Of a stretch of 64,000 nucleotides of DNA, positions 6,394 through 62,840 are shown piece after piece (position 1 is the stretch's first letter; the number at the start of each line of letters is the position of its first letter). The notes under the pieces were generated by a model. The model saw nothing but the letters and a program-made list of their open reading frames with translations, was not told the origin of the DNA and did no database searches. This DNA is from an uncultured Acidimicrobiaceae bacterium. GTDB taxonomy: Bacteria; Actinomycetota; Acidimicrobiia; Spongiisociales; SHLN01. The position numbers and the translations under genes are program-made. The stretch lies in contig CAMYMH010000011.1 of assembly GCA_947259275.1 (NCBI GenBank), forward strand, positions 481 through 64,480, in the 5' to 3' direction.

Positions 6394-6442
6394 GCCTATC
6401 GCCTACCGCCTACCGCCTACCGCCTACCGCCCACCGCCTAGC
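6394..6442. repeat. Heptamer tandem array (GCCTACC)x~7
   Basis: gcctatc gcctacc x4 gcccacc gcctagc, between divergent genes. Confidence 0.95.
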
Positions 6443-6476
6443 GTGGGTATGGCAATCCGGGATTGGAGGGAGCATC

Positions 6477-7694
6477 GTGAGCCGTATCGAGTCCGATCTC
6501 CGCACGCTGGTGTCGATTCCATCGGTCACGGGCGACGAGGCCGCCTGCCAGGACCATGTTGCCGAATGGCTGTCGGATCGCGGTCTCCGGGTGGAGCGGA
6601 TTGAAACCGATCCGACCTCCCTCATGTCTGATCCTGCCTTTCCCGGCTTTGAGATGCCGCGGACGCGGCTCCCGGTGGTAGCGGGGCATCTCGATACCGG
6701 TCATCCGGGCCCGCGGGTGATCCTGGTCGGTCACGTCGATGTGGTCCCACCGGGTAACGCGGCCGCGTGGTCGCGGCCGGCATTCGAGCCGTGGGTGGAG
6801 GATGGCCGTCTCTACGGCCGGGGTGCCTGCGACATGAAGGGGGGATTGGTCGCCGCCGTCGAGGCCGTGCGGAGGGTGATTGAGGAGGGCGGCCACCTCG
6901 TCGGTGAAGTCATCATCCTGGCGGTTCCGTCAGAGGAGGACGGTGGGGCCGGTTCGCTCTCGGCGATCCGCGCCGGGTACACCGGTGACGCCTGTGTGAT
7001 TACCGAGCCGACCGGGCTGGAGATCGTGGTCGCGCATGCGGGTGCCATCACCTTCACGCTGGAGGTGCCGGGAAAGGCGGCCCATGCCTCGATGCGCCGC
7101 GAAGGGGTTTCGGCCCTCGAGCATCTCCAATACCTGAATGCGGCGCTGTCCGATGACGAGCGAGCCCGCAACCAAGCGGAGACACATCCGCTCATGCGGG
7201 CGATCGGGCTGCCATATCCCACGATCATCGGGCAGGTCGAGGGCGGATCTTGGGCGTCCACTGTCATGGATCGGGTGGTCGCCCACGGGCGCTACGGAGT
7301 CCGTCTCGGTCAGGAATGCGACGGGGCCGCCGAGGAGCTGCGGTCGGTGGTGACGGAGGCCTGGAAGGCCCATCCCTTTCTCGCCGATCGACCGGTCGGG
7401 TTCCGGGTGTGGGGAGCCAGGTTCGACTCGGCTTCGATCGATCCCGACCATGAGTTGCCGATCGGCCTGGCGGCGGCCTTCGAAGCCGTCACGGGACGGG
7501 ACACCGGGAGAGTCGGAGTCCCGTACGGTGCCGACATGCGCCTGTTCATCAACGAGGGGAACACGCCGACCGTCATGTTCGGGCCCGGTGATGTTCGGGT
7601 CGCCCATGCCGCCGACGAGTACGTTCGGCTCGATGAGGTCGAAGCCTGTGCCGCCACGCTCGCTCGGTGGCTGAACGAGGTGTGTGCGGGTTGA
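6477..7694 (+). CDS. ArgE/DapE family M20 deacylase
   Basis: 'GHVDVVP', 'GRGACDMKGG', 'SEEDGG', 'EPT', 'AHAADEY'; GTG start after a GGAGG RBS. Confidence 0.93.
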   Translation: MSRIESDLRTLVSIPSVTGDEAACQDHVAEWLSDRGLRVERIETDPTSLMSDPAFPGFEMPRTRLPVVAGHLDTGHPGPRVILVGHVDVVPPGNAAAWSRPAFEPWVEDGRLYGRGACDMKGGLVAAVEAVRRVIEEGGHLVGEVIILAVPSEEDGGAGSLSAIRAGYTGDACVITEPTGLEIVVAHAGAITFTLEVPGKAAHASMRREGVSALEHLQYLNAALSDDERARNQAETHPLMRAIGLPYPTIIGQVEGGSWASTVMDRVVAHGRYGVRLGQECDGAAEELRSVVTEAWKAHPFLADRPVGFRVWGARFDSASIDPDHELPIGLAAAFEAVTGRDTGRVGVPYGADMRLFINEGNTPTVMFGPGDVRVAHAADEYVRLDEVEACAATLARWLNEVCAG

Positions 7695-7716
7695 CCGCCC
7701 GAGTAGTCGCCAGTCG

Positions 7717-7807
7717 CAAGACCCAAGACCCAAGACCCAAGACCCAAGACCCAAGACCCAAGACCCAAGACCCAAGACCCAAGACCCAAGACCCAAGACC
7801 CAAGACC
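7717..7807. repeat. Perfect heptamer tandem array (CAAGACC)x13
   Basis: 13 exact copies between convergent argE-like and fpg genes, preceded by AGTCGCC AGTCGCA. Confidence 0.98.
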
Positions 7808-7829
7808 CATCAACGGAGGATCTTCCGGT

Positions 7830-8717
7830 TCACTCCAGATCCTCCAATGTCTTGGGCCATTCGTCCTTGAGGATCCGCGATAGGGAGCGGTCGGCGAGGA
7901 TCTTGCCGCCGGTTTGGCAGCCCGGGCAGTAGTTGAGCTCGTTGGCGGTGGCGTAGACGATGCGCTGGATCGGCGATCCACACACCGGGCACTCCTGCTT
8001 GAACTTTCCGTGGACCGCCATCTCGGCGTGGAACGCAGTCACCTTGTCCGGAAAGCCGTCACCCAGTTCATCTCGCAGCCGGTCGGTCCATTCGGTCAAG
8101 ATCTCGACGGCAGCGTCGTAGACGGTCTCGGCCTCCTCCCGGGTCATCTGGCTGGTGAGTTTGAACGGTGACATCTTGGCCCGGTGCAAGATCTCGTCCG
8201 AGTAGGCGTTGCCAATGCCGCTGAACAGGCGCTGATCGGTGAGTGCCCGCTTGACCGTGTGCCGGGCGGCCGTTATCGCCTCGACGAACTCGTCGGTGGT
8301 GGCGGTGAGAACCTCGAGGCCGCCGCGGTCGTGCTCGGCGAGGGCCTCCTCGCCCCGAACCAGGTGGAGGGTGGCCCGTTTCTTGGTGCTCTGTTCGGTC
8401 AGCAAGATGGTGCCGTCCGGGAAGTCAAAAGCAGCCAGGCCGACCCGCTTGGGTACGGTCGTCCCCTTCGGCTTCCAACGCAGGCGACCCGAGATCATCA
8501 AGTGAAGCACGAGGAAGAGGTCGTCTTCCAGTTGGAACACGATCCGTTTGCCGAGGCGTCGCAGGCCGATCACCGTCTTGCCGTTTGCGGTGTCGATCGG
8601 CGGATCGTATGACCCGAGCAAGGAGATTCCGGCGATGCGGATCCGCTCGAGCTTCTGGCCCATTACGTAGCGATTGAGCGCTTCGAGATAAATCGTGATA
8701 TCCGGAAGTTCAGGCAC
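7830..8717 (-). CDS. Fpg/Nei family DNA glycosylase
   Basis: N-terminal 'PELPD', 'HLMISG', H2TH 'SGIGNAYSDEILH', zinc finger CPVC..CPGC. Confidence 0.95.
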   Translation of the reverse strand: MPELPDITIYLEALNRYVMGQKLERIRIAGISLLGSYDPPIDTANGKTVIGLRRLGKRIVFQLEDDLFLVLHLMISGRLRWKPKGTTVPKRVGLAAFDFPDGTILLTEQSTKKRATLHLVRGEEALAEHDRGGLEVLTATTDEFVEAITAARHTVKRALTDQRLFSGIGNAYSDEILHRAKMSPFKLTSQMTREEAETVYDAAVEILTEWTDRLRDELGDGFPDKVTAFHAEMAVHGKFKQECPVCGSPIQRIVYATANELNYCPGCQTGGKILADRSLSRILKDEWPKTLEDLE

Positions 8718-8790
8718 GATGCTTCATTCTCGCGGCTACCGAGAGCTGAGGTTGAACCAGCAGCTTGCCCCGACCGTAGACTCTCCTTCC

Positions 8791-9705
8791 ATGGCCGGAT
8801 CATCGGAATCACGGACGCTCGTCGTTCTCGCCCTCATCGCCAATATTCTCATCGCGATCATGAAGTTCGTGGCGGCCGCCATCACCGGCTCTGCCGCCAT
8901 GCTGGCCGAGGGGTTTCACTCGACTGCCGATAGCGGCAATCAGCTCTTCCTGCTTCGAGGCGCCGCCGTGTCGCGTTACGGGCCAAACGTGCGTTACCAG
9001 TTCGGGCGTGGCAAGGAGCTGTATTTCTGGTCGTTGATGGTGGCCGTCTTCCTCTTTGTCGGTGGCGCGGTCGTGTCCTTCTTCGAGGGTTACGAGCGGT
9101 TCCGGCACCCGGAAGAGACCTCCCATCTCGCCTGGAGCCTCGGGGTCCTGGCGGCGGCGGGCGTCTTTGAGATCGTTATCGCCTTCTGGCCGGCACTCAA
9201 GGAGTTCAATCACCGGCGGGGGAGCCGCAACGCCTGGCGGGCGATCCGTGAATCAAAGGACCCCGCGCTCATGGTGGTGCTGTTCGAAGACGCCGCCGCC
9301 GTCGCTGGTGTGATGATCGCCGCCTTCGGCATCCTGATGGGTGAGTGGACGGAAAACCCAAGATGGGACGGCGCCGCCTCCATGGCCATCGGCGTGCTGC
9401 TGGCGCTGGTGGCGTTTCTGGTCGCCTACGAGGTCAAGAGCATGCTGGTCGGGGAGAGCGCCAGTCGGCAAGTCCGTTCACAGATCCGCGCCGCGGTCCT
9501 CTCCCACCCGAACGTCGAGAGCATCGGTCGGCTGCTCACCATGCACATGGGACCAACCGACATCGTTGTCAACCTCGACGTCGACTTCCAGGATGGCCTC
9601 TCGGCCAACCAGGTGGAATCCACCATCGATGAAGTCGAGGCGGCCGTGCGCGAAGTGGCCCCACAAGCAACCCAGATCTTCGTGGAGCTCGAGTCGGCGC
9701 GATGA
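8791..9705 (+). CDS. Cation diffusion facilitator (CDF) transporter
   Basis: 'AEGFHSTADSGNQ', 'FGRGKELYFWS', 'LFEDAAA', C-terminal dimerisation domain. Confidence 0.93.
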   Translation: MAGSSESRTLVVLALIANILIAIMKFVAAAITGSAAMLAEGFHSTADSGNQLFLLRGAAVSRYGPNVRYQFGRGKELYFWSLMVAVFLFVGGAVVSFFEGYERFRHPEETSHLAWSLGVLAAAGVFEIVIAFWPALKEFNHRRGSRNAWRAIRESKDPALMVVLFEDAAAVAGVMIAAFGILMGEWTENPRWDGAASMAIGVLLALVAFLVAYEVKSMLVGESASRQVRSQIRAAVLSHPNVESIGRLLTMHMGPTDIVVNLDVDFQDGLSANQVESTIDEVEAAVREVAPQATQIFVELESAR

Positions 9706-10514
9706 ACGCGTCGGCACCAGCGTCGTCTGCCAATCTCGGACCCGGGTTCGACTCGCTGGCGCTGGCGCTCGAACTTCGCTGTCGAGTCGACGTGGCCGAA
9801 GCCGCCAGTTGGGAGATCGCAAACGATCCCGAAGGGTTCGTGCAGGCCGCGGCCACCCGCATCAGCCAAGACCCCCTCCGGATCGAGGTTCGGTCCGAGA
9901 TACCGGTCGGTAAAGGCCTCGGATCGAGTGCGGCGCTGCTGGCCGCGCTCGAGACGGCCGTCCGGCGCCTGTGGGGCAACCCGGTCGAGCATGCAGAAGT
10001 GTTTGACGCCGTGGCAGCCGCCGAGGGACACGCCGACAACGCAGCCGCCGCCGTCTACGGCGGCTTGGTGCTGGCCGGGTCGGGATCGGTGCACCGGATG
10101 GAAATGCATCCTTCGCTTTCCGTGGTGGTCGCCGTTCCCAACCAGACCCTTCCGACCGGCCAAGCGCGGGCTGCCCTGCCCGAAGCAGTGCCATTCGAGG
10201 CAGCGGCCCGGACGAGTGGGCGGGCGATTCGCCTCGTCGAAGGCTTGCGCACCGGCAACCTCGAAGTACTTGGCTCCATCGGGCCCGATGAGATGCACGA
10301 GCCATTTCGAGTGGCGCTCCGTCCCGTGATCGGGCGGCTGCTGAGTGCGGCCGCCGAGGCCGGGGCACCCTTCGCGGCCATCAGCGGGGCCGGCCCGTCG
10401 GTGCTTGCCATCGTGACCGAGCAATCGCGGGAAGCCGTCACCGAAGCGCTCGGCGATGCGGTGGGAGAAGGCACTCTGCTCAGCCCCGCCATCGCGGCGG
10501 AGGGCGTCCTCTAG
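9702..10514 (+). CDS. thrB: Homoserine kinase
   Basis: 'PASSANLGPGFD', GHMP motif 'IPVGKGLGSSAA', 'EGHADN', 'SGAGPS'. Confidence 0.93.
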   Translation: MNASAPASSANLGPGFDSLALALELRCRVDVAEAASWEIANDPEGFVQAAATRISQDPLRIEVRSEIPVGKGLGSSAALLAALETAVRRLWGNPVEHAEVFDAVAAAEGHADNAAAAVYGGLVLAGSGSVHRMEMHPSLSVVVAVPNQTLPTGQARAALPEAVPFEAAARTSGRAIRLVEGLRTGNLEVLGSIGPDEMHEPFRVALRPVIGRLLSAAAEAGAPFAAISGAGPSVLAIVTEQSREAVTEALGDAVGEGTLLSPAIAAEGVL

Positions 10515-11995
10515 AGCAGGCTCCAGGGGACCGCCAGTGTCACCGAGCGGCAGCCGGCCGGGGTGTCAATGGTGTTGGGTAGGAACGAAGAACCGAAGTG
10601 GGCTCCGGTGACTGCGTTATCGACGAAGCAGTACCAGCGGCCGCTCGCGCTCTGAGTAACCACATGTACTTCCTGGCCGCCGTCGACGTAGGCGAAGGTG
10701 CCAACGCCGGCCTGGTCGGGCGTGCCGACGAAGTCGAGCGCGTCGTCGATGAAGATGGCGTTGAGGGTGGAGGTGGGGATGTCATAGTCGCCGGCTCCGG
10801 CGTACAAGTCGCGAGCCACCAGCAGGATCTCCTCCATGAAGCCGACCGCCTGCTCGTTGGCGGTTCCAGCTTCGCCGGCGTTGAGCACCCACTTGCAGGG
10901 ATGGACAGCCGCATACCAGGTGCCGCCCCATTCCCACACGCCGAAGTCGGTGATGGTGAGCGTCTCACCGCTGTCGAGGTAGGTGACGTCGAAGGTGGCG
11001 AACGCCTCATCGCTGTGGCCGACGTTGCCCCGAATCATTTCAAACGGTCCGAAGGTGACACCGGTCGGGCTCCAGGGGAACGGGTCGAGCGCAAGCGAGG
11101 CATCTGCCGGGGTGCAGGCGAACAGCGGCGGCACCGCGGCGTGGAGCGAAACGTAGTCCTGGGTCGCCTCGGCGACGATGAACTGCTGGATCACGGCTTC
11201 GATCTCGATCTCCTCGGCGGCCGAGAGCGGAATCGGGGGCAGTGTGGTCGTCGTCGTGGTGGTCCCTCCGATGGGGGGCGGGCCAAGGATGTCGGGGACG
11301 GTGGTGGTCGTGCTTGCGTCGGGTTCCGGGAGGGTAATGGCAGGGTCAATCGGCGCCTCGAGCGAGGGAGTATCGGCGGCGCCGTCGGCATCGGGCGATA
11401 TCTCAGCCACCGCGGTGGTGGTGGTGAGCACGACCGGATAGCTGAAGTCGCCACTGGCAACCCGCCCGGCAACGTCGCACGGGTCGAGTGCCATGCGCCA
11501 ACCGTCGGGCTCCCAATAGGCGAGCAGGCCTTCCACCCGCAATGAGCCCTCATCGTCGGACACCTCAAATGAGCCGGTTGCGAAATCCCCCACCACCTGG
11601 ATGTCGGTGGTTCCGAACGTGAGCTCGACCGGCTCGACCGCGGTGGATGTGACGGTTGAGAATTCCTCGGGGGTACAGGTGTCTTTGAATTCGACGGCAG
11701 AGGCATCGTATACAGCGTCCCATTGACCGGCGGCCGCCGCCTGGAAGTAGGTCTTGGTGAGATCCGAGACAAACGCCTCTGCGACCACTCGCTCTTCGGG
11801 GGTGGTGGTTGAGGTAGTTGGGGGCTTCTGGAACAGCATGTCGAACAGGGCGTCGCCGACCGCGTCGGGAAGCTCGGCGGCGGGTGCGGCTGTGATCGGC
11901 GTGGTTGCGGCCTCCTCGCCACCACCAGAGCAGGCTGAGGCAACCAGGGCCAGTCCAAGCAACACGACGGTCGCGTGGCGATTGACGGTGCGCAT
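10511..11995 (-). CDS. Hypothetical multidomain lipoprotein (two NTF2-like repeats plus a C-terminal pilin-head-like module)
   Basis: Lipobox 'LVASAC', Thr/Pro linkers, repeated 'W...(D/H)PC' modules, 'QSASGRWYC'. Confidence 0.75.
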   Translation of the reverse strand: MRTVNRHATVVLLGLALVASACSGGGEEAATTPITAAPAAELPDAVGDALFDMLFQKPPTTSTTTPEERVVAEAFVSDLTKTYFQAAAAGQWDAVYDASAVEFKDTCTPEEFSTVTSTAVEPVELTFGTTDIQVVGDFATGSFEVSDDEGSLRVEGLLAYWEPDGWRMALDPCDVAGRVASGDFSYPVVLTTTTAVAEISPDADGAADTPSLEAPIDPAITLPEPDASTTTTVPDILGPPPIGGTTTTTTTLPPIPLSAAEEIEIEAVIQQFIVAEATQDYVSLHAAVPPLFACTPADASLALDPFPWSPTGVTFGPFEMIRGNVGHSDEAFATFDVTYLDSGETLTITDFGVWEWGGTWYAAVHPCKWVLNAGEAGTANEQAVGFMEEILLVARDLYAGAGDYDIPTSTLNAIFIDDALDFVGTPDQAGVGTFAYVDGGQEVHVVTQSASGRWYCFVDNAVTGAHFGSSFLPNTIDTPAGCRSVTLAVPWSLL

Positions 11996-12028: not shown

Positions 12029-12766
12029 TTAGCGGTTCGCCCCCCGGGCGGCGGCGATCAACTCGTCGAACAAAGTGCGGGCGGCCGGCTCGGTCTCCAC
12101 CAGGTTTTCGGGATGCCATTGCACCGCCAGCAGCGGCCACGACGGGTCCTCAGGCTCAACTGCCTCGATGACGCCGTCCTCGCTCCAGGCGACCGGCCGG
12201 AGCCCGGGTGCCGGCGTGGCAATCGCCTGGTGGTGCAACGAGTTCACTTTCAAAGAAGACGTGCCAAACAGCCGTGCCAGTCCGCAGGTCTCCTCTAGTT
12301 CGATAGCCTGATGGGCCTCGGTAGCCGCCCCGTCGCCGGTAACGAAGTGCTCGAAGCCTCCATCCACTTGGCTCGGGATGTCGGCGATGAGGTCTCCGCC
12401 CAGCGCCACGTTGAGGATCTGAATGCCCCGGCAAATTGCCAGGACCGGCATCTTCTTTTCGGCCGCATAACGGGCGATCGCCAATTCCGACTGATCGCGC
12501 GGGTCGTGCACTCCATACACCGCCTCATGACCGGCACCGCCGTAGAGGCCGGGTGACACGTCGCCACCGCCGGTCAGCACCAGGCCGTCGAGCCGGTCGA
12601 GAGCGTGAGGGACCGTGGCCGGATCGAGAATCGGAAGCAGCAGGGGAACCCCGCCGGCGGCGGCGACTGCATCCGAGTATGACCGAGTTACCGTCATGGC
12701 GGGCTGAGCGCCATAGCTGGTGGCGACGTCTCGTTGCTGGGCGGTGATGCCGATTACGGGTGTCAT
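12029..12766 (-). CDS. Gamma-glutamyl-gamma-aminobutyrate hydrolase family (peptidase C26, PuuD-like)
   Basis: 'PVIGIT', 'LTGGGDV', 'ICRGIQ', 'VNSLHHQA', 'VQWHPE'; start trimmed to the ATG at 12766. Confidence 0.92.
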   Translation of the reverse strand: MTPVIGITAQQRDVATSYGAQPAMTVTRSYSDAVAAAGGVPLLLPILDPATVPHALDRLDGLVLTGGGDVSPGLYGGAGHEAVYGVHDPRDQSELAIARYAAEKKMPVLAICRGIQILNVALGGDLIADIPSQVDGGFEHFVTGDGAATEAHQAIELEETCGLARLFGTSSLKVNSLHHQAIATPAPGLRPVAWSEDGVIEAVEPEDPSWPLLAVQWHPENLVETEPAARTLFDELIAAARGANR

Positions 12767-12827
12767 TGTCCAAGAGACTCTAGATGGGCGTTTGCGTAGC
12801 CGGGCCCCGCGGGCCAAGCTGTACCCA

Positions 12828-12920
12828 ATGGGATCACTGATAAAGAAGCGGCGCAAGAAGATGTCGAAGCACAAATACCGCAAACGACTCCGCGCCAATC
12901 GCCACAAGCGCAAGAAGTAG
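12828..12920 (+). CDS. 30S ribosomal protein bS22 / AURKAIP1-COX24 family small basic protein
   Basis: MGSLIKKRRKKMSKHKYRKRLRANRHKRKK matches the actinobacterial bS22 pattern. Confidence 0.93.
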   Translation: MGSLIKKRRKKMSKHKYRKRLRANRHKRKK

Positions 12921-12944
12921 AGAACGCCTTCGGCGTTCCGCAGA

Positions 12945-13006
12945 CCGCCCACCGGTCACCGCCCACTGCGTCCGCCATGTGCGTCCGGTGGGCGGTTCAC
13001 GGTGGG
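12945..13006. repeat. Inverted pair of short heptamer arrays (CCGCCCA)x3 ... (CGGTGGG)x3
   Basis: ccgccca ccggtca ccgccca, about 20 bp, then cggtggg cggttca cggtggg, between convergent genes. Confidence 0.8.
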
Positions 13007-13013
13007 CCCAGGG

Positions 13014-21922: not shown

Positions 21923-22110
21923 CGCCAGGCCTAGGGAAACCACTCTTTCTTGGGAGGTTGCAGTTGCGTAGCAACTGCCAAGCTGCCCGTAGAGCAGCCG
22001 CCAGGCTTAGGCAAACCACTCTTTCTTGGGAGGTTGCAGTTGCGTAGCAACTGCCAAGCTGCCCGTAGAGCAGCCGCCAGGCCTAGGCAAACCACTCTTT
22101 GTTGGGAGGT
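21923..22110. repeat. 76-bp tandem direct repeat (about 2.5 copies) with an internal palindrome
   Basis: Units start at 21923, 21999 and 22075; each full unit contains GCAGTTGCGTAGCAACTGC and CTGCCCGTAGAGCAG. Confidence 0.95.
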
Positions 22111-22122
22111 AGGGGGTTCTCT

Positions 22123-22150
22123 CAGCTGGTAGCTGGTAGCCGGCAGCTGG
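22123..22150. repeat. Heptamer array (YAGCTGG)x4
   Basis: cagctgg tagctgg tagccgg cagctgg, upstream of the PAC2 gene. Confidence 0.8.
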
Positions 22151-22199
22151 TGCGGGCTACGGCCAGCGCTAGGCGGTCGGCTCTTGGTACTCTGAACTC

Positions 22200-23048
22200 A
22201 TGGATCCTGTCCTTCGCCTGTCCGAGCCCGACCTTCACAAGCCGGTTGCACTGGTGGCGTTCGAGGGCTGGAACGATGCGAGCGACGCCGCCTCGGGAAC
22301 CATCGCCTACATCATCGGTCAGTTCGACGCCGAGCCCTTCCTGATCATCGACCCGGAGGAATTCATCGATTTCCACGAGACCCGGCCCATCATCAAAGTG
22401 GAAGATGGCGCCACCGAGGAGCTCGCCTGGCCCGCCACCCGGATGTATGGAGTCCATCTCGACGAGGGAGAGCACGACCTCGTCCTGGTCCTCGGAGACG
22501 AGCCGCAGCTGCGCTGGCAAACCTATGGTGGCCTCCTCATCGACGAGCTCCGCCGGATCGGCGTCGAGCAGGTTGTGCTGTTGGGAGCGTTTCTCGGCCA
22601 GGTACCACACACTGCGCCCGTGCCGGTCATCGGGACTGCGGCATCGGCCGACGAGCTGATTGCGCTCGGACTGGCCGGGGCCAACTACACGGGCCCGACC
22701 GGGATCGTCGGGGTGCTGTCTCACCTGTTCCGTGAGGAGGGCCTGTCAACTCTCAGCCTGTGGGCTGCCACTTCTCATTACCTCGGCACCAACCCGAACC
22801 CGAAAGCCATGCTGGCGCTCCTGGAGCGGGCGGCCAGGATCCTCGACATTTCGGTCGACGCCACCGAGCTCGCCGAAGAAGCCGGCGAATTCGAGTCCCG
22901 CGTGGACGCAGCCATGGCGGCATCGGAGGAGTTTTCGGAGTACGTGCGGCGCCTCGAATCGTTGGCCGGCGAGGCCGCTACCGAGTTCAGCCGCTCGGAT
23001 GCCGCCGAGCTGATCACCGAGGTCGAGGACTTCCTGAAGGGGAACTGA
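22200..23048 (+). CDS. PAC2 family (proteasome assembly chaperone-like) protein
   Basis: 'AFEGWNDASDAAS', 'IDPEEFIDF', 'EPQLRW', 'YTGPTGIVGVL', 'PNPKA'. Confidence 0.92.
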   Translation: MDPVLRLSEPDLHKPVALVAFEGWNDASDAASGTIAYIIGQFDAEPFLIIDPEEFIDFHETRPIIKVEDGATEELAWPATRMYGVHLDEGEHDLVLVLGDEPQLRWQTYGGLLIDELRRIGVEQVVLLGAFLGQVPHTAPVPVIGTAASADELIALGLAGANYTGPTGIVGVLSHLFREEGLSTLSLWAATSHYLGTNPNPKAMLALLERAARILDISVDATELAEEAGEFESRVDAAMAASEEFSEYVRRLESLAGEAATEFSRSDAAELITEVEDFLKGN

Positions 23049-23066: not shown

Positions 23067-25253
23067 CTATCGCCCGAAGCGCTTGAGCCGGACGCTGTTG
23101 GCCACAACGCTCACGCTCGAGAAAGCCATGGCGAGTGCGGCGACGCTCGGGTCGAGTTGGCCGAGCGCTGCCAGCGGAATTGCCGCCGCGTTGTAGAAGA
23201 ACGCCCAGAACAGGTTCTGGCTGATGGTGCGGTGCGTGCGGCGGGCGAGGTGCACGGCGGTGACGACCAGCTTGGGGTCACCAGACAGCAACACCACATC
23301 GCCCGCTTCAATCGCGATGTCGGTGCCGGAACCGACCGCCAATCCGAGATCTGCCTGAGTTAGAGCAGGGGCATCGTTCACTCCATCGCCCACGAAGGCA
23401 ACGATCTCTCCTTTTTGCTGGAGGGCTTCGACGGCGGCAGCCTTCTCGGCCGGCCTCACCTGGTCGAGGACCCGTTGGATACCGACCTCTTCGGCCACCG
23501 CGTTGGCGGTCACCGGGTTGTCGCCGGTCACCATCACCAGGTCGATGTCCATCTCGGCCAGTTCACGGATGGCAGCCCGGACCTCGGGTCGCGGGGCATC
23601 CACAACCGCCACGATTCCCCGGACTGCTCCGTTCCAGGCGGCGGCAAAGACGGTGCGCCCTTTACTTTCCATCTCGCTCACCCGTGCGCGAACTTCCGGG
23701 GCCAACTCCAGATCAGCCGATGCCATCAAGGCGGTGCTCCCAACGATCAACCCGGTCTGGTCGACCGTGCCGCGGATGCCGCCGCCCGGAAGCTCTTCAA
23801 CCTCGGACGGAGTGGTCAGCTCGAGACCCTTCTCCTCGGCGGCCAGGGTGAGCGCCCGAGCCACCGGATGTCCGCTCGCCGACTCCAGCGAGGCGACGAG
23901 GGTCAGGAAGCGGTCGGAATCGACGGTGGTCTCCAGCGCATCGAGCGTCATGCGGCCGCTGGTGATGGTCCCGGTCTTGTCGAAGGCAATGGTGTCGACG
24001 GTCCGGGTCCGCTCGAACACCTCGGCCGTCTTGAACAGAATCCCGAGTTCAGCCCCTCGACCAGAGCCGGCCATGATGGCCGTCGGTGTCGCCAGCCCGA
24101 GCGCGCACGGACAGGCGATGATGAGCACTGCCACCGCGTTGCGCCACGCGGTCTCAACCTCACCGCTCACCGCCAGCCACACCAGGCCGGTGCCGACGGC
24201 CACCAGGATCACGATGGGGACGAACACCGACGACACCCGATCGGCGAGACGCTGGGCGGGTGCTTTGCTGGCTTGGGCGGCCTCTACCATGCGCGCGATC
24301 TGGGCGAGGGCAGTGTCTGAACCCACGGCGGTTGCCTCGACAATCACCCGCCCCTGATGATTGACGGTCGCCCCGTACACGATGTCGTCGGGGCCTTTGT
24401 CGACCGGCAGTGATTCGCCGGTCAGGAGGCTCTCGTTGAAGGACGACCTCCCGGCGTTGATACGCCCGTCGGTGGGGACTTTCTCGCCGGGGTTCACGAC
24501 CATCAGGTCGCCGGGGCGGACGGTGTCGGCCGGCACCCGGGTTTCCACGCCGTTGCGCAGGATGCGGGCCTCTTTGGCCCCCAGCTCCAGCAGCCTGCTA
24601 ATTGCCTGGGAGGCGCTTCCCTTGGCACGGGCTTCGAAGAACCTGCCGAGCAGGATGAAGGTGATGATGAGCGCCGCAGTCTCGAAGAAGACCTTCTCCC
24701 TGGCGAATACCGCCCACACCGAGTACCCGTAGGCCGCCAGGGTGCCCATGGAGACCAGCGTGTCCATGCTGGTGCCGAAGGAACGGAGTCTCAGCAGGGC
24801 ATTGCGGTGGAACTGCCATCCGAAGACAAATACCACCGGAGTGGCCAGCACCCACATGGCCACCTTGGCACCGTTGCCGTCGTCCCCCAGCAGCATTATG
24901 AGGATCAGTGGGATGGTGAAGGCCGCGGCCCAGGCAAGATTCCGCCTTTGGAAAAGAAATTCGCGCTCATAACGATGGGTTGGGGTTTCGCGAGCCTCGT
25001 CCGGAGTGATCTCGGTGAGGTGGTAGCCGAGTTTCTCGATGGCAGCGGTGAGCGTGCCGACGTTGGACCCGGGGTCGAGTTGGACCACTGCCTCCGCACC
25101 GGCGTAGTTGACCACCGCGGACTCAACCCCCGCTTGCTTGCCGAGGACGCGCTCGATGCGCACTGCACACGATGCACAGGTCATGCCGTCGACCTCGAAG
25201 GAGACTGCGACCGGCTCGGTCGGTGTTTCTACTCCAGCGGGAGTTTCGATCAT
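23067..25253 (-). CDS. copA: Copper-translocating P1B-type ATPase
   Basis: HMA 'GMTCASC', '[10 protein letters not shown]', 'DKTGT', 'GHP', 'YN...P' and 'MAFSS'. Confidence 0.94.
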
Positions 25254-29494: not shown

Positions 29495-29544
29495 AGGCGA
29501 ACCCTAGATCGGCATCTCGAGTCCCCGGGGCCCGTTTCAGAGGT

Positions 29545-29572
29545 GCGGTCGGCGGTGGGCGGTGGGCGGTGG
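29545..29572. repeat. Heptamer array (GCGGTGG)x4
   Basis: gcggtcg gcggtgg x3, just upstream of lnt. Confidence 0.88.
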
Positions 29573-29591
29573 GCTGAGTACTCTCTCACCG

Positions 29592-32593: not shown

Positions 32594-32631
32594 GCTGGGA
32601 GGCTAACTGATGATGGAGGCCTTCGGCCTCC

Positions 32632-32776
32632 AGTCCCAAGTCCCAAGTCCAGAGTCCCAAGTCCCAAGCCAGAACGCGTGATCCTCGCTTGGGTCTTGGG
32701 TCTTGGGTCTTGGGTCTTGGGTCTTGGGTCTTGGGTCTTGGGTCTTGGGTCTTGGGTCTTGGGTCTTGGGTCTTGG
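32632..32776. repeat. Inward-facing pair of heptamer arrays (AGTCCCA)x5 ... (CTTGGGT)x12
   Basis: Left array 32632-32666, right array 32688-32771 plus a partial unit abutting the purB stop; the right array is the reverse complement of the 7717 array. Confidence 0.97.
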
Positions 32777-58232: not shown

Positions 58233-58239
58233 TTCCGTA

Positions 58240-58385: not shown

Positions 58386-58853
58386 TCAACCGAGTTCAGC
58401 CAGCCCCGTCCTCACGTCATGGAGATGGTGCTGCGGATCGTGAATGAGGTAGCGGGCGAACGACTCGATAGTGAAGGCGGCGCCGTCGCCCCGAAATCCG
58501 GTTCGGTCCCACCTGCTCCCCGATCGGCGTTGGCGGCCAGTTCGGCCGCGACGTCGACGGGATCCGACTCGCCGTATCGCTTCTCGATGGCCGTCTCGTC
58601 CTGATTCCAGTTGGCGTAGCGGGGACCATCCTTGGTAAGCATCAGTTCCAACCGCTGGTCGTACAGGGCAAACACGTCGCGAACATGGCAGGCATATTCG
58701 AGGGCCGACCACCGATCCGGCCGCGGTCGCTGGCGAAGGGTCGCCTGTTCGCCGGCCAGGATGTCGGCCCACTCGGCGGCGGCCGCCCGGGTCATGGCCG
58801 AGATGTGGTCGCGAGGGAAAGCGCGGACGTCGAATCGGCACTGGGAGCATGTA
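58386..58853 (-). pseudogene. DinB family protein pseudogene (N-terminus missing, internal frameshift)
   Basis: 'CSQCRFD..WSALEYACHVRDV..NWNQDETA..AANADR' in one frame continues as 'WDRTGFRGDGAAFTIESFARYLIHDPQHHLHDV' in another. Confidence 0.8.
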
Positions 58854-59916
58854 CCGTGATACGGCACCCGCTCGGATCGGCATTGGCGGCCGAGATGCTG
58901 CCGCCGTGGAGGTCGACGATCCACCTCGAGATGGCCAGCCCCAGACCCGAGCCGCCGGTGGCGGCAGCCCGGTCCGGGCTTGCACGGTAGAACCGCTCAA
59001 AGACCCGGTCGAGCTCACCCGCCGGGATCCCGGGCCCGCCATCTTCTACGATCACGACGGCCTGGTGACCAGCTGCCTCGATGGCCAGGTGAATCGGCTC
59101 ACCCTCCGGGCTGTGGCGCATGGCGTTGTCCAGCAGGTTGGCCATCACTTGATGGAGTCGTTCGGGGTCGCCATCCATGACGAGCTGCTGGGGAGCTGAA
59201 ACCTCGATCTTGGCCTCCGGGTCCTGTAGCCGCGCCTCCGCCAGCACCTCTTCCATCACCTCGATCAGGTCCAACCGGGTTGCCCGGATCGGCGAAGCGC
59301 CTGCCTCCAGGCGAGACAGATCCATGAGCTGGTCGACCAGGCGGCCCAGGCGCCCGGTTTGTCGCAGCATGGTGGCGAGCGTCTGCGCGCGATCGTCAAC
59401 GACGTCGTCGAGCAGGTTCTCGACGTTGCCGTGCAGGGCGGCGATGGGAGTGCGCAGCTCGTGGCTCACATTGGCGATGAGGTCGCGGCGTTGCCGCTCG
59501 AGATCGGCGATGTGGGCGGCCATGGCGTTGAACGAGCGAGCCAGCTCGCCGACTTCGTCGGCGGCGGTGGCGGTCACCCGCTGGTCGTAGTTGCCGTCGG
59601 CCATGTTGTCGGCGGCTTGCATCATCTCGGTGAGGGGGGCGGTGAGGCCCCGGGCGAGGATCTGAACCAGTACGGTGGCCACGATCACGGCGGCGGCGAC
59701 CCCCCAGACAGCCGGGAGTTCGAGGGAGTAGCCGATGCTGAGCGTGACAATGGTCACTCCGATGGCCGCACCGATCACGATGCTCAGCTTGAGCTTGACC
59801 GACGGGATCCGGTCGAGGGGCCGCCGAGCACTGAACGGAAGAACCCGGTCGATCCATCCGATGAGCCGCTCGAGCCGGGAATTGGTGGTGTCGATCGACT
59901 GTCGCGTCCGGTTCAT
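58792..59916 (-). CDS. HAMP-domain sensor histidine kinase
   Basis: Two TM helices, HAMP 'DEVGELARSFN', 'NVSHELRTP', 'NLLDNA', 'GGSGLGLAI'; start overlaps the regulator stop. Confidence 0.93.
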   Translation of the reverse strand: MNRTRQSIDTTNSRLERLIGWIDRVLPFSARRPLDRIPSVKLKLSIVIGAAIGVTIVTLSIGYSLELPAVWGVAAAVIVATVLVQILARGLTAPLTEMMQAADNMADGNYDQRVTATAADEVGELARSFNAMAAHIADLERQRRDLIANVSHELRTPIAALHGNVENLLDDVVDDRAQTLATMLRQTGRLGRLVDQLMDLSRLEAGASPIRATRLDLIEVMEEVLAEARLQDPEAKIEVSAPQQLVMDGDPERLHQVMANLLDNAMRHSPEGEPIHLAIEAAGHQAVVIVEDGGPGIPAGELDRVFERFYRASPDRAAATGGSGLGLAISRWIVDLHGGSISAANADPSGCRITVHAPSADSTSALSLATTSRP

Positions 59917-60593
59917 GAGGCTTCCTCCGGCAGTGCGATGGCATAGCCGACGGCATGCACGGTGCGGATGACCCCATCGCCCAGCTTGCGCCTGACCGCC
60001 CGGATGTGGCTGTCCACGGTACGGGCGCCCGAGCCATCCCGGTATCCCCATACCCGGCCGAGCAGCTGTTCGCGGGTCAGCACGGCGCCGCCGGCCGCCG
60101 CCAGGGTGTACAGCAGGTCGAATTCGGTCGCGGTCAGGTGAACCGGGCTGCCGTTTCGACTCACCGTCCGGGTTGCCTCGTCGATCTCGACTTCCCCGAC
60201 CGTTAGCCGGGGAGCAGACGGCACTTCGGTGGCAGCTCTGCGAAGCACGGCCTGAACGCGGGCCACGAGTTCCCTCGGGCTGAACGGCTTGGTGATGTAG
60301 TCGTCGGCTCCCACCCCCAGACCAACCAGCATGTCGGTCTCGTCGTCCTTGGCGGTCAGCATGACGACGGGTGTGCGGCGCTCCCGTTGAATCCGGCGGC
60401 ACACCTCGATGCCGTCGAGCTCGGGCAGCATGAGGTCAAGCACCACGAGATCGGGACGCAGTGACAGGCAGCGCTCCACCCCGCTCTGGCCATCGGCACA
60501 GATCTCGGTGGTGAACCCCTCGCTTCGCAGCCGCGCCGCCACCACCTCGGCGATGTCGCGTTCGTCTTCGATGATGAGGATCGTCCCGGCCAT
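59913..60593 (-). CDS. OmpR/PhoB family response regulator
   Basis: 'IIEDE', 'DLMLP', 'GADDYITKPF', winged-helix 'RTVDSHI..VRRKL'. Confidence 0.95.
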   Translation of the reverse strand: MAGTILIIEDERDIAEVVAARLRSEGFTTEICADGQSGVERCLSLRPDLVVLDLMLPELDGIEVCRRIQRERRTPVVMLTAKDDETDMLVGLGVGADDYITKPFSPRELVARVQAVLRRAATEVPSAPRLTVGEVEIDEATRTVSRNGSPVHLTATEFDLLYTLAAAGGAVLTREQLLGRVWGYRDGSGARTVDSHIRAVRRKLGDGVIRTVHAVGYAIALPEEAS

Positions 60594-60659
60594 CGCTGTT
60601 CAGGCTACGGGCAAACTCGGGGAAGTGTCTGGCCGCCGGCGTGAAGATCCTGTGCAGCT

Positions 60660-62102
60660 CTAGGCCGCTTGGCGGTAGATCGGGAGATCTGTCGGTCTCG
60701 GTGGCTCCGGTGCGATCGGATCTTGGTCCTTCCCGGGTGGGTGGGTGCCGGACCCTCCCAGCACGGCTTCGAGAAGTGGGAGGGCCCGATTGACCTGGCG
60801 GGCCGAGATGACCCGGTCCCACAGCCACTCGAATTTCTTCCACCCACCGGCGTATGCCAGGTGCCGAAGCCAGTCGCCGCGGTTGTCGTGGGAGCCGGCG
60901 CTGCGCAGGATGGAGCCCCACCGGTAGAAGTCCCGGTAGGCACCACGGTATCCGCCCAGTAGCTGACCGGGCGTGAGGCCCCGAGGTTGATAAACGACGT
61001 CGCGGGTGGTGTATCGATCCCAATCGTCGGTGAGGATGCGGCGGTCGGCCTGCAGCCGGGTGTGGAGCCTGGTTCCCGGGTAAGGGGTAAGGATATGAAA
61101 GGTGGCCGTCTCGATCCCGGCCGAAACCGCCCACTCCACGGTGCGGTCGAAAACGCCGGCATCGTCGTGGTCGAGGCCGAACACAAAGCTGGCGTTGACC
61201 ATGATGCCGAGGTCGTGAACCCGCTTCACCACCTCGCCATAGTCGCGAGAGAGGTTCTGGGGCTTGTGATGGCCGGCCAGGTTGTCGGCGCTGAGGGTCT
61301 CGAACCCGATGAACACGCTCCGCATGCCGGCCGCCGCCGCCTCCTCCAGGAGACCCGGCCGGAGCACGGCGTCGACCGTGGAGGCGGCCTGCCACAGGCG
61401 GCCCATGCCGCCCATCCCGGCGAACAACTCGCGGGCGAAGCTGGGCTTGCCGAGCAGGTGGTCGTCGAGGAAGTACACGTGGCGCCCCGGCAGCCGTTCG
61501 ATCTCGGCCAGGGCGTCGTCAACCGCCTGGGTGTAGAACCCTTGGCCACCCGTGTAGAAGGCGTCCTTGTAGCAGAAGTCGCAATGGTGGGGGCAGCCGC
61601 GCGATACGACGATCGAGTTGGGGCACAGGTAGAGGTTGCGCTTGATGAGATCTCGTCGTACCGGAGGGATTCCCACCAGGGTGCGCACCGACGACTCGTA
61701 TCGGGGCTTGGGATTCCCGGCCCGGAAGTCCGCCAGGAACTCTGGCCAGGTGGCCTCGCCGGGCCCCAGGAAGATGGAATCGGCGTGGCGGGCAGCCTCG
61801 TCCGGCAAAGAGGTGACGTGGAGCCCGCCCATCGCCACGTGCACACCGCGGTGGCGATAGAGGTCGGCGATCTGGTATGACCGCCGGGCAGAGGTGATGT
61901 ACACCTGAATCACAACCAGGTCCGGCTCGTCGCCCAGGTCGAGCGTCTCAACGTGCTCGTCCTGCAGCACCACCTCGTCGTCGGGGTCGAGGTGGCTCGC
62001 CAGGGTCGCCAAGCCGAGCGGAGGGACCAGCGAGTACTTGATCGGCCGCCAACCCGGGCCGGTCGCTTCGATGAGCGCCGGCAGGATCATCTTCACTCGC
62101 AC
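60660..62102 (-). CDS. B12-binding domain radical SAM protein
   Basis: 'PPLGLATLA', 'GGLHVT', CxxxCxxC 'SRGCPHHCDFC', 'TPYPGT'. Confidence 0.93.
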   Translation of the reverse strand: MRVKMILPALIEATGPGWRPIKYSLVPPLGLATLASHLDPDDEVVLQDEHVETLDLGDEPDLVVIQVYITSARRSYQIADLYRHRGVHVAMGGLHVTSLPDEAARHADSIFLGPGEATWPEFLADFRAGNPKPRYESSVRTLVGIPPVRRDLIKRNLYLCPNSIVVSRGCPHHCDFCYKDAFYTGGQGFYTQAVDDALAEIERLPGRHVYFLDDHLLGKPSFARELFAGMGGMGRLWQAASTVDAVLRPGLLEEAAAAGMRSVFIGFETLSADNLAGHHKPQNLSRDYGEVVKRVHDLGIMVNASFVFGLDHDDAGVFDRTVEWAVSAGIETATFHILTPYPGTRLHTRLQADRRILTDDWDRYTTRDVVYQPRGLTPGQLLGGYRGAYRDFYRWGSILRSAGSHDNRGDWLRHLAYAGGWKKFEWLWDRVISARQVNRALPLLEAVLGGSGTHPPGKDQDPIAPEPPRPTDLPIYRQAA

Positions 62103-62103
62103 G

Positions 62104-62649
62104 TCACACGCCCTGGACGTGAACGAATGCCCGCCGGGCCCTGGCCTGGTCCAGCTCGACGAACATCACCCGTTGCCAGCGACCGAGCAAGGCCTCACCC
62201 TCCACCACCGGGACGATCACGGTTGGGGACCCGACGAGCATGGCCCGGCAATGGGCATGGCCATTCACGAACTCGTCTTCTTGCAGGTTCTCGGTCCGGA
62301 GCTCGTAATCGTCGTGCTCGTAGTAGACGCCGGCCGGGACCTGGGATTCGAGCAGCCGCCGAAAGTCGTTGAGGAACCCCGTTTCCGCCTCGTTCACCAC
62401 GATGCTGGTGGTGGTGTGAGGCGTGTAGATGGTCGCCTGTCCATTGGTCAGTCCCGACCTATCGATCACCTCGTGCACGAGGCGGGTGAGATCCCAGAAC
62501 TCGTTCGGCGCGGTGGTCGAGAAATGGATCACCTCGGTACGGAGAAGGGGATCCGAGGTGGCGGCCAGCACCACGGTCTTTCCGTTCGGCTCTCGAGTCG
62601 TCCAAGGGGAAGTCGTCGCGCAATCCACGGATCTCAATCCGGCCGTCAT
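62104..62649 (-). CDS. yjbQ: YjbQ/UPF0047 family protein (copy 2)
   Basis: 'PHTTTSIVVNE', 'NGHAH', 'LGRWQRVMFVELD'; stop 1 bp before the radical SAM start. Confidence 0.9.
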   Translation of the reverse strand: MTAGLRSVDCATTSPWTTREPNGKTVVLAATSDPLLRTEVIHFSTTAPNEFWDLTRLVHEVIDRSGLTNGQATIYTPHTTTSIVVNEAETGFLNDFRRLLESQVPAGVYYEHDDYELRTENLQEDEFVNGHAHCRAMLVGSPTVIVPVVEGEALLGRWQRVMFVELDQARARRAFVHVQGV

Positions 62650-62768
62650 CTCGGTCTCCTTCGTCGGCGCAGGGTCTCATCACCACCGTACGAATTGGAG
62701 ATGGAGGAGTCTCACCGACCAAGTGAAGATGTCGTGCAGGGGAACACCTTCGGTGTTCCTAGGAGTAC

Positions 62769-62840
62769 GTTGCCGGTTGCCGGTTGCCGGTTGCCGGGTG
62801 CCGGTTGCCGTTGGGCGTGGCCGGTTGGCGGTTGGCAGCT
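62769..62840. repeat. Heptamer array (GTTGCCG)x6 plus degenerate units
   Basis: gttgccg x4 ggtgccg gttgccg ... gccggtt ggcggtt ggcagct, directly downstream of the tpl stop. Confidence 0.92.

Follow-up and report, generated by a model that had tools for sequence, protein, structure and literature searches.

Heptamer arrays in the window

The window (the whole 64,000-nt stretch of DNA analysed) contains 13 period-7 rows among 51 TRF rows, and all of its arrays are intergenic according to our own crude gene model of the host genome, G000 (3576 genes, 88.6% coding; Table 1). Every array listed in an earlier note on this DNA was recovered except for two degenerate right partners (∼12986 and ∼43974), which TRF scoring misses and which are seen by eye as degenerate complementary units. 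The neighbouring genes named in that note were confirmed by Pfam as M20 peptidase, LuxR response regulator, PAC2, Lnt, PurB, ABC ATPase and SPFH. Two trivial 2-copy period-7 rows are also located in the window, at 24159 and 61078.

Table 1. Heptamer arrays, paired elements and the gene-bearing cassette of the window
Feature	Position	Strand or skew	Context	Basis
GCCTACC ×6.7 array	6394-6440	C-rich on +	divergent gap, squalene/phytoene-synthase-like gene (-) / M20 peptidase gene (+)	TRF, Pfam
CAAGACC (= ACCCAAG) ×13.3 array, 100% matches	7717-7809		convergent gap	TRF, Pfam
Imperfect hairpin pair	12944-13010	ACCGCCC-type C-rich arm 12944-12966; degenerate GGTGGGCGGT-type G-rich arm ∼12986-13010		TRF, sequence
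AGCTGGT ×4 array	22124-22151	G-rich	upstream of PAC2 gene	TRF, Pfam
GCGGTGG ×4.3 array	29545-29574	G-rich	ends 7 nt ahead of conserved TACTCT box of lnt	TRF, Pfam
Palindromic element	32632-32776	(AGTCCCA)n arm, semi-conserved loop CCAGAACGCGTGATCCTCG, (CTTGGGT)×12.7 arm		TRF, sequence
Heptamer-armed cassette, complete	42088-42557	+	C-rich arm 42088-42119, PF05635 gene, G-rich arm 42528-42557	
119-aa PF05635 (23S_rRNA_IVP, Avd-like four-helix-bundle) gene	42161-42520	+		E 3.5e-38, 130.5 bits, cut-off 33.8
GCCCACC ×3.1 array and degenerate partner	43905-43998 (TRF row 43905-43926; partner ∼43974-43998)	C-rich array, G-rich partner	next to SPFH gene stop	
GTTGCCG ×9.6 array	62769-62834		right end of gap	TRF, gene model

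The CAAGACC array lies 22 nt past the stop of the M20 gene and 20 nt from the stop of an Fpg-like gene. The hairpin pair at 12944-13010 is flanked by the stops of a small + strand ORF and the LuxR response-regulator gene (Pfam). The AGCTGGT array is located upstream of a TACTCT -10-like box, which is found 6-7 nt before the PAC2 ATG at 22200, and the lnt gene at the GCGGTGG array looks leaderless. The palindromic element comprises two TRF rows (32632-32668 and 32688-32776, the latter with 100% matches). Its CTTGGGT arm directly adjoins the purB stop codon, and the element is predicted to form a long hairpin with one U·U or A·A mismatch per 7 nt (z -6.15). A GC hairpin lies between the GTTGCCG array and the stop of a - strand gene at 62845.

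One pair of arms encloses a gene. The PF05635 cassette is positioned between the ABC ATPase gene and an unnamed gene, and not in 23S rRNA (Pfam). The TRF row for its C-rich arm begins at 42095 (42095-42119), and the two arms pair in the predicted fold (z -3.65). The nearest solved structure to the encoded protein is 2GSC (E 3.2e-19).

Period 7 dominates the intergenic repeats of the genome

An excess of period 7 in intergenic DNA, which the earlier note had set beforehand as the test of its reading, was upheld against the neighbouring periods. Genome-wide, TRF rows with a score of at least 50 number 92 for period 7, 7 for period 6, 2 for period 8 and 12 for period 9. De-duplicated rows scoring at least 40 divide into 125 intergenic and 10 coding for period 7, 3 and 1 for period 8, and 3 and 7 for period 10. 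Exact periodic intergenic runs of at least 2.5 copies were found 129 times for period 7, 20 times for period 5, seven times for period 6 and three times for period 8.

The unit table shows a few units that recur at dozens of loci. The units are not the unrelated sequences described earlier but a few families, 1-2 changes apart, that return at many loci. The proposed ACC-N4 phasing on the C-rich strand applies to most window units and breaks down genome-wide, where AAGTCCC, AACGGGC, ACTGGCG and ATCCGGC have no ACC on that strand.

A GGG/CCC tract plus 4 nt is present in 143 of the 218 period-7 rows in G000 (counted from the unit table), as would suit G-quadruplex or i-motif elements of the kind proposed for GGGAATC (Xanthomonas) and GGGGAYT (Nostoc); such units form quadruplexes in vitro according to the parts of Rehm 2015 (PMC4692102) drawn on here. 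However, the exact-run copy number declines monotonically, with no preferred length and no peak at four units, and G-tract repeats of shorter period are not enriched in the exact-run survey. Moreover, congeners use units without G-tracts (GGCATCA, GGTCGCC, CAGCGGA and CTTAGTA) at matching places and as cassette arms, and their arrays behave no differently. Quadruplex or i-motif formation is therefore a very remote explanation of the arrays.

Polarity follows the gap and not the direction of transcription

The genome contains 199 intergenic arrays, of which 29 are skew-neutral and 170 are skewed. C-rich arrays occupy the left half of the gap in 68 cases and the right half in 19, and G-rich arrays the left half in 12 and the right half in 71. 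Orientation, whose randomness the earlier note had named as grounds against its claim, is fixed: 139 of the 170 skewed arrays obey the C-rich-left/G-rich-right order, across all four gene-orientation classes. Totalled per unit family, the ratio is 106:22. Neighbouring arrays less than 1.5 kb apart run C then G in 34 cases and G then C in 4. Convergent gaps (20 C, 19 G) and divergent gaps (23 C, 13 G) exhibit the same polarity, with mean relative gap positions of 0.29-0.35 for C arrays and 0.70-0.74 for G arrays, which ties the polarity to the gap rather than to transcription direction. Gaps without arrays are skewed in the same direction but only slightly (∼0.03), so background composition does not account for the polarity. 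The period counts and left/right counts agree with the view of the arrays as one genome-wide family of fixed period and polarity.

Relative to the neighbouring genes, 72 arrays have the C-rich strand after a stop codon, at a median distance of 5 bp, and 24 have the G-rich strand there; before starts, the G-rich strand is found in 66 and the C-rich strand in 8. Arrays are densest in convergent gaps (0.65 per kb, versus 0.34 per kb in divergent gaps). These distributions bear on a further suggestion of the earlier note, C-rich Rho-loading sites. The arrays would then be selected transcription insulators: whichever polymerase leaves a gene for the gap would produce C-rich, G-poor RNA that loads Rho, and the hairpin of a paired array would serve in addition as a terminator or stabiliser. 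The composition and place of the 72 arrays after stops fit this role, as do the crowding in convergent gaps, the strong predicted hairpins and the Rho gene of the host genome. The fit does not extend beyond arrays after stops, however. G-rich arrays before starts are about as frequent, and divergent gaps show the polarity to an equal degree. In addition, the array-free congener G004 also encodes Rho, the unit shared with other phyla runs the other way there, so that the RNA after stops is G-rich, and the period of 7 is left unaccounted for. As a general explanation, Rho insulation is quite improbable.

Hairpin partners and gene-bearing cassettes

On their inward side, 21-26% of the arrays have a complementary partner no more than 150 nt away; the share is 0% on the outward side and 3-4% in the control, and about three quarters of the arrays have no recognisable partner. 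A count of near-matches to the complementary unit around 88 single arrays gave 531 on the inward side, 348 in the control and 267 on the outward side. AAGTCCC/AAGACCC pairs share a common semi-conserved loop, in both orientations, at at least seven loci; no gene-bearing copy of this AAGWCCC family was found in G000. Neither target-site duplications nor fresh insertions were observed for the arrays. The dedicated generating mechanism postulated in the earlier note did not gain an enzyme: the Y1 (RAYT) transposase PF01797 and the reverse transcriptase RVT_1, which telomerase-like or retroelement-made repeats would call for, were each found in none of the eight genus genomes (completeness 72-95%).

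Inverted repeat arms bracket the PF05635 gene at all 12 loci examined. Period-7 arrays were identified by TRF on both sides in 10 of them; the other two, and the G005 locus with one TRF arm, also show inverted arms. The window gene is at a conserved position in five species, which indicates no recent move. In other phyla, two of the three PF05635-like ORFs found in 558 kb are flanked by AAGACCC arms. G000 contains two PF05635 genes versus more than 200 arrays, and its second gene copy lacks arrays. One metagenome contig, in reads placed at 85% likeness, joins the window arms via 19 other letters at the gene site and is weak evidence for the PF05635 link.

The arm units vary by species yet remain mutually complementary. 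The unit of a cassette arm recurs exactly in other arrays of its own genome in five of nine genomes, compared with 6 of 111 cross-genome pairs, and each genome, host or relative, has its own few dominant units. Both features would be expected of putative multivalent binding sites of a protein (for example a cold-shock-domain, S1 or PF05635 protein) whose footprint on nucleic acid is 7 nt, with units co-evolving per species; S1, Csp and CsrA were proposed for TAACTGA repeats in the portion of MacGregor 2015 (PMC4679880) used here. Such sites nevertheless seem improbable, given that several unrelated units share one genome, even adjoining in compound arrays, and that PF05635 proteins are alike across species while the arm units differ completely.

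Patchy occurrence and unit turnover among relatives

Period-7 TRF rows scoring at least 40 number 22 in 187 kb of G005 and 0 in 419 kb of its congener G004; none occur in 200 kb of G010 or 140 kb of G008. Relatives hold arrays at corresponding gaps but with other units. In the divergent gap 29495-29591, both -10 boxes are kept in six species; arrays of different units are present in G000, G006, G005 and G003 and absent from G001 and G004.

The PF05635 family is encoded in 16 of 41 relatives and, within the genus, in all except G004. The correlation with four-helix-bundle genes that the earlier note proposed to check is positive at the level of presence and absence: arrays occur in 12 of 13 PF05635-positive and 3 of 10 negative sampled genomes (Fisher p = 0.006, uncorrected for kinship, the kin not being independent; 10-419 kb sampled per genome, genomes 72-100% complete). 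Arrays without a PF05635 match are found in G023 (10 in 84 kb), G029 (2 in 53 kb) and G009 (3 in 77 kb), and G007 has a PF05635 gene with no array in 50 kb.

Unit drift between species at fixed places, the monotonic fall in copy number and the occurrence of arrays of the same unit in many phyla are consistent with neutral microsatellites, generated because the replicative polymerase prefers 7-nt slips (an idea attributed to Mrazek 2007) and building up in every place that selection tolerates, with the PF05635 link as a by-product. Heptamers also lead the long SSRs of many bacteria, as stated in the parts of PMC4679880 and PMC4692102 drawn on here. However, a general polymerase trait does not account for the difference between G005 and G004, nor for the 106:22 polarity, the return of a few units at dozens of loci or the conserved loops. 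Neutral slippage alone is thus an unlikely source of the arrays.

Comparison with known repeat systems

Cyanobacterial STRR repeats are heptamers. The likeness to them drawn in the earlier note is apt: tandem 7-nt units, a period-7 intergenic excess and variation of unit and copy number between relatives are all observed. The kind is already published, as STRR-type heptanucleotide long SSRs (Mrazek 2007 as summarised in PMC4679880; Rehm 2015, PMC4692102), and so is a polarity independent of gene direction (PMC4692102, which also cites STRR heptamers for Calothrix PCC 7601). Rehm 2015 (PMC4692102) describes, in its consulted sections, the G-rich heptamers GGGAATC (Xanthomonas) and GGGGA(C/T)T (Nostoc PCC 7120). 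Like those repeats, the arrays are intergenic tandem 7-nt units, hundreds per genome, that lie close to one flanking ORF regardless of its orientation, are fewer between divergent genes, include inverted pairs and differ in length and sequence in the same gaps of close relatives. Unlike them, they comprise many coexisting unit families, with congener units that lack G-tracts, and do not show the preference for four units (four G-tracts). In those sections, the G-rich strand follows stops and the C-rich strand precedes starts, whereas the reverse is observed here. Arrays in other phyla follow the published sign (32:10), and the polarity reversed against both the published rule and the same unit in other phyla is new here.

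Mrazek, Guo & Shah 2007, as summarised in PMC4679880 and PMC4692102, found period 7 to be the commonest long-SSR class, in high-G+C non-pathogens including Actinobacteria. The arrays share this dominance of period 7 and a sporadic occurrence among species; polarity, hairpin pairing and an associated gene, present here, do not feature in those summaries. MacGregor 2015 (PMC4679880, in the portion used) describes TAACTGA direct repeats in marine Beggiatoaceae, Cyanobacteria and Bacteroidetes, which are likewise heptamers at gene boundaries, with a unit shared by distant phyla and no evident mobility mechanism. Those repeats have a single unit, mostly a few nt upstream of starts, whereas many units occur here on both sides of the gap, and the upstream arrays precede leaderless-type -10 boxes. 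The patchy distribution, the turnover of units in the same gap and the PF05635 link are new here.

REPIN-RAYT systems consist of short palindromic doublets and decayed singlets at gene ends, with a single-copy, repeat-flanked associated gene. The arrays resemble them in their species-specific sequence classes, patchy presence in relatives, doublets and singlets at gene ends and repeat-flanked gene. They differ in the lack of a Y1 transposase in eight of eight genus genomes and in arms that are tandem repeats instead of a fixed 20-40-nt palindrome. ORF-bearing 23S rRNA intervening sequences encode a PF05635/S23p protein. The cassette matches them in its small PF05635 gene within inverted arms able to form a long stem; those sequences sit in a 23S rRNA helix and RNase III removes them from the transcript, whereas the cassette lies between protein-coding genes and its arms are heptamer arrays. 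PMC10053308, in the part used, places the genes of some members of the family in large 23S rRNA intervening sequences and notes a resemblance of these members to DGR Avd.

A proposed hairpin-element origin of the arrays

The arrays are tentatively explained, at somewhat below even confidence, as STRR-type heptanucleotide long SSRs that here form the arms of hairpin elements tied to PF05635 cassettes. In the intergenic gaps of this lineage, they would represent small hairpin-forming elements, either as their two arms or as the one arm that is left. The full element would be a PF05635 gene between two complementary heptamer arrays, as at 42088-42557, and the far commoner gene-less arrays and pairs would be derivatives or landing sites of cassettes within the same system. 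In any one genome, a small number of unit families would spread across many loci and be held alike; between species, units would turn over while period and place persist, as is consistent with slippage during replication together with exchange between arrays. Arrays are proposed to abut stop codons and -10 boxes because they survive only outside coding sequence and the core promoter. The polarity would come from a fixed order of the hairpin arms (5' C-rich, 3' G-rich), which is the other way round in other phyla.

The hairpin-element explanation leaves both the period of 7 and the reversal of polarity unaccounted for. The descent of the arrays from PF05635 cassettes, or their dependence on them, and the mode of spread are our inference from these patterns, and the direction may be the opposite, with cassettes landing in, or being retained by, array hairpins already there. 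Effects on transcripts would also be conceivable: the arrays might form hairpins where transcripts end, or RNase III sites like those of rRNA intervening sequences.

More broadly, and doubtfully, the bacterial heptamer excess (STRR, long SSRs) might trace back to a single, domain-wide family of tiny hairpin elements. The heptamer-armed PF05635 cassette would be its autonomous form, and the Avd-like protein would make, spread or maintain the repeat hairpins as RAYTs do REPINs. An excess of heptamer repeats in bacteria was noticed decades ago. If such a family exists, this genus would offer a natural experiment on it, with congeners that have and lack both the gene and the repeats and with an arm polarity opposite to the one seen in other phyla.

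Heptanucleotide arrays in the genome

The genome to which the window belongs (contig C11, positions 481-64480; assembly of 3.85 Mb, 97 contigs, 64.7% G+C) was annotated with a purpose-written codon-usage caller, which yielded 3576 genes (88.6% coding), misses genes below 40 codons and places stops exactly and starts approximately. Tandem Repeats Finder (TRF) recovered every array that the earlier note had claimed in the window, and Pfam agrees with the names given there to the flanking genes. The two strongest arrays are perfect, and two right-hand partners are too degenerate for TRF detection and are readable in the sequence.

Genome-wide, TRF rows with a score of at least 50 number 92 at period 7 and 7, 2 and 12 at periods 6, 8 and 9, respectively (2657 rows in total). 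With overlaps removed and a score of at least 40, the intergenic and coding counts are 125 and 10 for period 7, 3 and 1 for period 8, and 3 and 7 for period 10; periods 14 and 21 contribute 39 and 17 further intergenic rows. Exact periodic intergenic runs of at least 2.5 copies show the same excess (129 at period 7; 20, 7, 3 and 1 at periods 5, 6, 8 and 9). Period-7 counts lie far above those of neighbouring periods, and the earlier note's expectation of a genome-wide enrichment is therefore borne out. Copy numbers exhibit no preference for four copies. The arrays are securely classed as heptanucleotide long simple sequence repeats of the STRR type.

A total of 43 canonical units occur among the 218 period-7 rows with a score of at least 36, and a few of them dominate (ACCGCCC, 58 rows; AAGACCC, 28; AAGTCCC, 18; AACCGCC, 12; AACGGGC, 12; ACTGGCG, 9). 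Many units are only one or two changes apart and therefore are not the unrelated sequences that they had been taken for. Among 41 related genomes, three consecutive copies of ACCGCCC are found only in this genome, in G006 and, once, in G003.

Records of heptamer repeats go back to about 1990; we know of no accepted reason for the period of 7, for array polarity or for an array role. Mrazek (2007), as relayed in PMC4679880 and PMC4692102, showed an excess of heptamers, which are more frequent than any other long microsatellite in many bacteria and have a sporadic distribution that includes Actinobacteria, and proposed polymerase slippage for them. PMC4692102 describes an orientation-independent polarity, rarity in divergent gaps and variation between relatives. 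Our literature search returned nothing on heptamer arrays in Acidimicrobiia or on GGGTCTT/AAGACCC as repeats.

Positions of arrays and associated features (window positions unless a contig of the same genome is named)
Feature	Position	Remarks
CAAGACC x13.3	7717-7809	perfect; one of the two strongest (TRF)
CTTGGGT x12.7	32688-32776	perfect; one of the two strongest (TRF)
Right-hand partner arrays	~12986, ~43974	below TRF detection
PF05635 gene	42161-42520	between arrays 42088 and 42528
Interval compared with metagenome contig	42110-42531	between cassette arms
Second PF05635 copy	C74:6746-7000	profile positions 22-106 only; 95-aa frame
Divergent gap	29495-29591	-10 boxes on both sides
TACTCT/TACCCT boxes	22186-22191, 29579-29584	6-8 nt 5' of ATG
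CAGAA/CCAGAA flanks (examples)	C12:76585, C7:92728, C6:49532, window 32673	inner end of C-rich arrays
TTCG-loop hairpins	12921-12937, 32617-32633, 62751-62769	between gene end and array
76-bp unit	21923-22110	2.5 tandem copies
76-bp unit copies near arrays (examples)	C61:3594, C5:89284, C4:133574	
Small ORF	12880-12920	+ strand
Gene wrongly extended over the small ORF	12029-12952	- strand

Polarity of the arrays

Polarity was analyzed with 199 intergenic arrays that have genes on both sides, 29 of which are skew-neutral. Of the C-rich arrays, 68 are in the left half of their gap and 19 in the right half; of the G-rich arrays, 12 are on the left and 71 on the right. This fixed orientation, as had been proposed, is common to tandem, convergent and divergent gaps, and it is found within each main unit family (106:22 in total). 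Neighbouring arrays run C then G in 34 cases and G then C in 4. Read along the nearest gene, the sense strand is C-rich in 72 and G-rich in 24 arrays after stops (median distance 5 bp), and G-rich in 66 and C-rich in 8 arrays before starts (median distance 46 bp). Many arrays begin with the stop codon itself (e.g. TAG-ACCCAAG...). The polarity is indifferent to the way in which genes run and is therefore a property of the gap, not of the direction of transcription. Background composition is ruled out as the cause of polarity, as array-free gaps have a skew of like sign but of only ∼0.03, and the arrays are therefore not simply amplified local composition.

Short GC-rich hairpins with a TTCG loop, resembling terminator stems without a T-tract, are positioned directly between gene end and array at three sites in the window. 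A very small ORF with a Lys/Arg-rich tail, a putative bS22 in the earlier note, ends just 5' of an array; it was missed by the caller, which wrongly extended an opposite-strand gene over it. A 76-bp unit containing two small GC hairpins is repeated in tandem in the window and has ∼25 partial copies across the genome, several of which adjoin heptamer arrays.

A search of species-representative genomes for four tandem copies of AAGACCC returned at least 115 stretches. The matches listed come from Planctomycetota, Acidobacteriota, Verrucomicrobiota, Bacteroidota (down to 33% G+C), Actinomycetota and others, and 80 loci among them (558 kb) contain 142 period-7 rows, against 1, 2, 16 and 2 at periods 5, 6, 8 and 10, respectively. 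In these 80 loci among the matches listed, the arrays agree with the polarity in print: it is the G-rich strand that comes after stops, and the C-rich one extends as far as the Shine-Dalgarno sequence (AAGACCC, 32 versus 10; other skewed units, 18 versus 9). An identical simple caller applied to AAGACCC in the genome studied here gives 13 versus 6 in the opposite direction. Two PF05635 cassettes with AAGACCC arms among the matches listed have the G-arm first, whereas the cassette of the window has the C-arm first. The literature search, confined to full texts (the supplements of PMC4692102 may include per-locus tables relevant to polarity), returned nothing on reversed polarity. Reversed polarity is a constraint for any explanation that rests on the G-rich strand alone.

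Hairpins and dispersal

A complementary partner is located within 150 nt inward of 21–26% of arrays (control, 3–4%) and outward of none. A hairpin is thus ruled out as a universal array feature, given that a clear partner exists for only this fraction. Single arrays have 531 complementary near-units inward versus 348 in the control. The AAGTCCC and AAGACCC families combine into a composite palindrome, (CCCAAGT)n-CCAGAAcgcgYgatcttcG-(TCTTGGG)m, with a semi-conserved loop and one position that is always mismatched between the arms. The palindrome is found at several loci in both orientations, which points to copies of a single element, not to independent births. The window copy has a predicted fold with a z value of -6.15.

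CAGAA or CCAGAA follows the inner end of C-rich arrays from several unit families, in ∼15 of 222 flanks. Compared by eye, the cassette of the window and the loops of pairs without a gene have no conserved inner flanks in common. Judged by their first residues only, genes between distant array pairs seem to be ordinary neighbours (one probably encodes an RNA-binding-domain-like protein), and cargo of a kind other than PF05635 was provisionally rejected.

The PF05635 cassette

A profile search identified the window ORF enclosed by arrays as a PF05635 four-helix-bundle protein. Its closest solved structure is XCC0516 from Xanthomonas campestris, an organism whose heptamer repeats are the subject of Rehm et al. 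(PMC4692102). The gene is located exactly between two arrays that pair with each other in the predicted fold. Inverted arms bracket all 12 PF05635 loci obtained by profile search, that of the window included; at 10 of them TRF reports a period-7 array on either side, and the other two show inverted arms. The G005 locus has a single TRF arm, and its inverted arms are visible on closer inspection. Arm sequences are entirely different from species to species but remain complementary (e.g. CCTGGTT/AACCAGG, GCAATTC/GCGAATT and CTTAGTA/CTAAGTA). In 5 of 9 genomes the exact arm unit is also used by further arrays of that genome, versus 6 of 111 cross-genome comparisons. No paper on heptamer arrays that flank PF05635 genes emerged from the literature search. 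The PF05635 link and the reversed polarity are thus possibly new.

PF05635 is present in 16 of the 41 relatives, including every genome of the genus except G004, and in none of 6 genomes from the other genera of the family. Period-7 rows in sampled stretches number 10, 7 and 9 in 100 kb of the PF05635-positive G025, G020 and G022, 3 in 60 kb of G019, 8 in 10 kb of G038 and 2 in 20 kb of G018. PF05635-negative genomes have 1 row in 100 kb (G037) or none (G027, 100 kb; G036, 86 kb; G030, 45 kb), yet two of them bear arrays (G023, 10 in 84 kb; G029, 2 in 53 kb). The arrays of G023, which belongs to the same order, are long (e.g. CACTGAC x12.6 and GACCACT x15.3). With array-positive genomes defined by at least two period-7 rows per 100 kb, arrays are found in 12 of 13 PF05635-positive versus 3 of 10 PF05635-negative genomes (Fisher p = 0.006, from small samples of related genomes). 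With such sampling, the link between PF05635 and arrays is an association and no proof.

A second copy of PF05635 in this genome has no flanking arrays and is possibly decayed. A search of sequencing runs gave one DNA metagenome run, with a small share of matching words, and no RNA run; contigs from the DNA run represent relatives only. On a sediment metagenome contig, to which reads align at 85% likeness, 19 other letters replace the PF05635 gene between the cassette arms, a weak hint of a relative without the gene.

Turnover among relatives

Within the genus, gene order is kept at a DNA identity of ∼70–80%, and corresponding gaps carry period-7 arrays with other units. Presence is patchy by period-7 TRF rows with a score of at least 40 in sampled stretches: 22 in 187 kb of G005 and 8 in 24 kb of G006, and none in 419 kb of G004, which belongs to the genus, or in 50 kb of G007. 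Other genera of the family have 0 in 200 kb (G010), 0 in 140 kb (G008) and 3 in 77 kb (G009). In the divergent gap of the table, six species keep both leaderless-type -10 boxes. Between the boxes, four species have arrays, with units that differ, and G001 and G004 have none. The TACTCT/TACCCT boxes are kept in six species, as is a TAGGGT box on the opposite strand that would serve the divergent neighbour. This arrangement suggests leaderless transcripts with arrays occupying the -35 region.

Two possible sources were rejected: RAYT transposases, as PF01797 was found in none of the 8 genus genomes searched, and a telomerase-like or retroelement origin, as no RVT_1 reverse transcriptase was found in the genus. 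No other mobility enzyme was found either.

Interpretation

A tentative reading, to which we give slightly less than an even chance, is that each array represents an arm, or what is left of an arm, of a small hairpin element belonging with PF05635 cassettes. Slippage would lengthen and shorten the arrays; within a genome, a few unit families would spread and be homogenized, and between species they would be replaced; and arrays would persist only where neither coding sequence nor core promoter is harmed. Pure slippage, Rho-loading insulators, quadruplexes and protein-binding sites were weighed as alternatives to this reading.

Since close relatives with and without arrays have a common gene order, gain and loss are traceable gap by gap. 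The tie to the Avd-like PF05635 protein is reproducible, in that such arrays clamp each of the 12 loci from the profile search. If this tie is not causal, the arrays are, for all their prominence, ordinary representatives of a repeat class already described. If it is causal, it would join two old puzzles, heptamer repeats and the ORF-bearing intervening sequences of rRNA.
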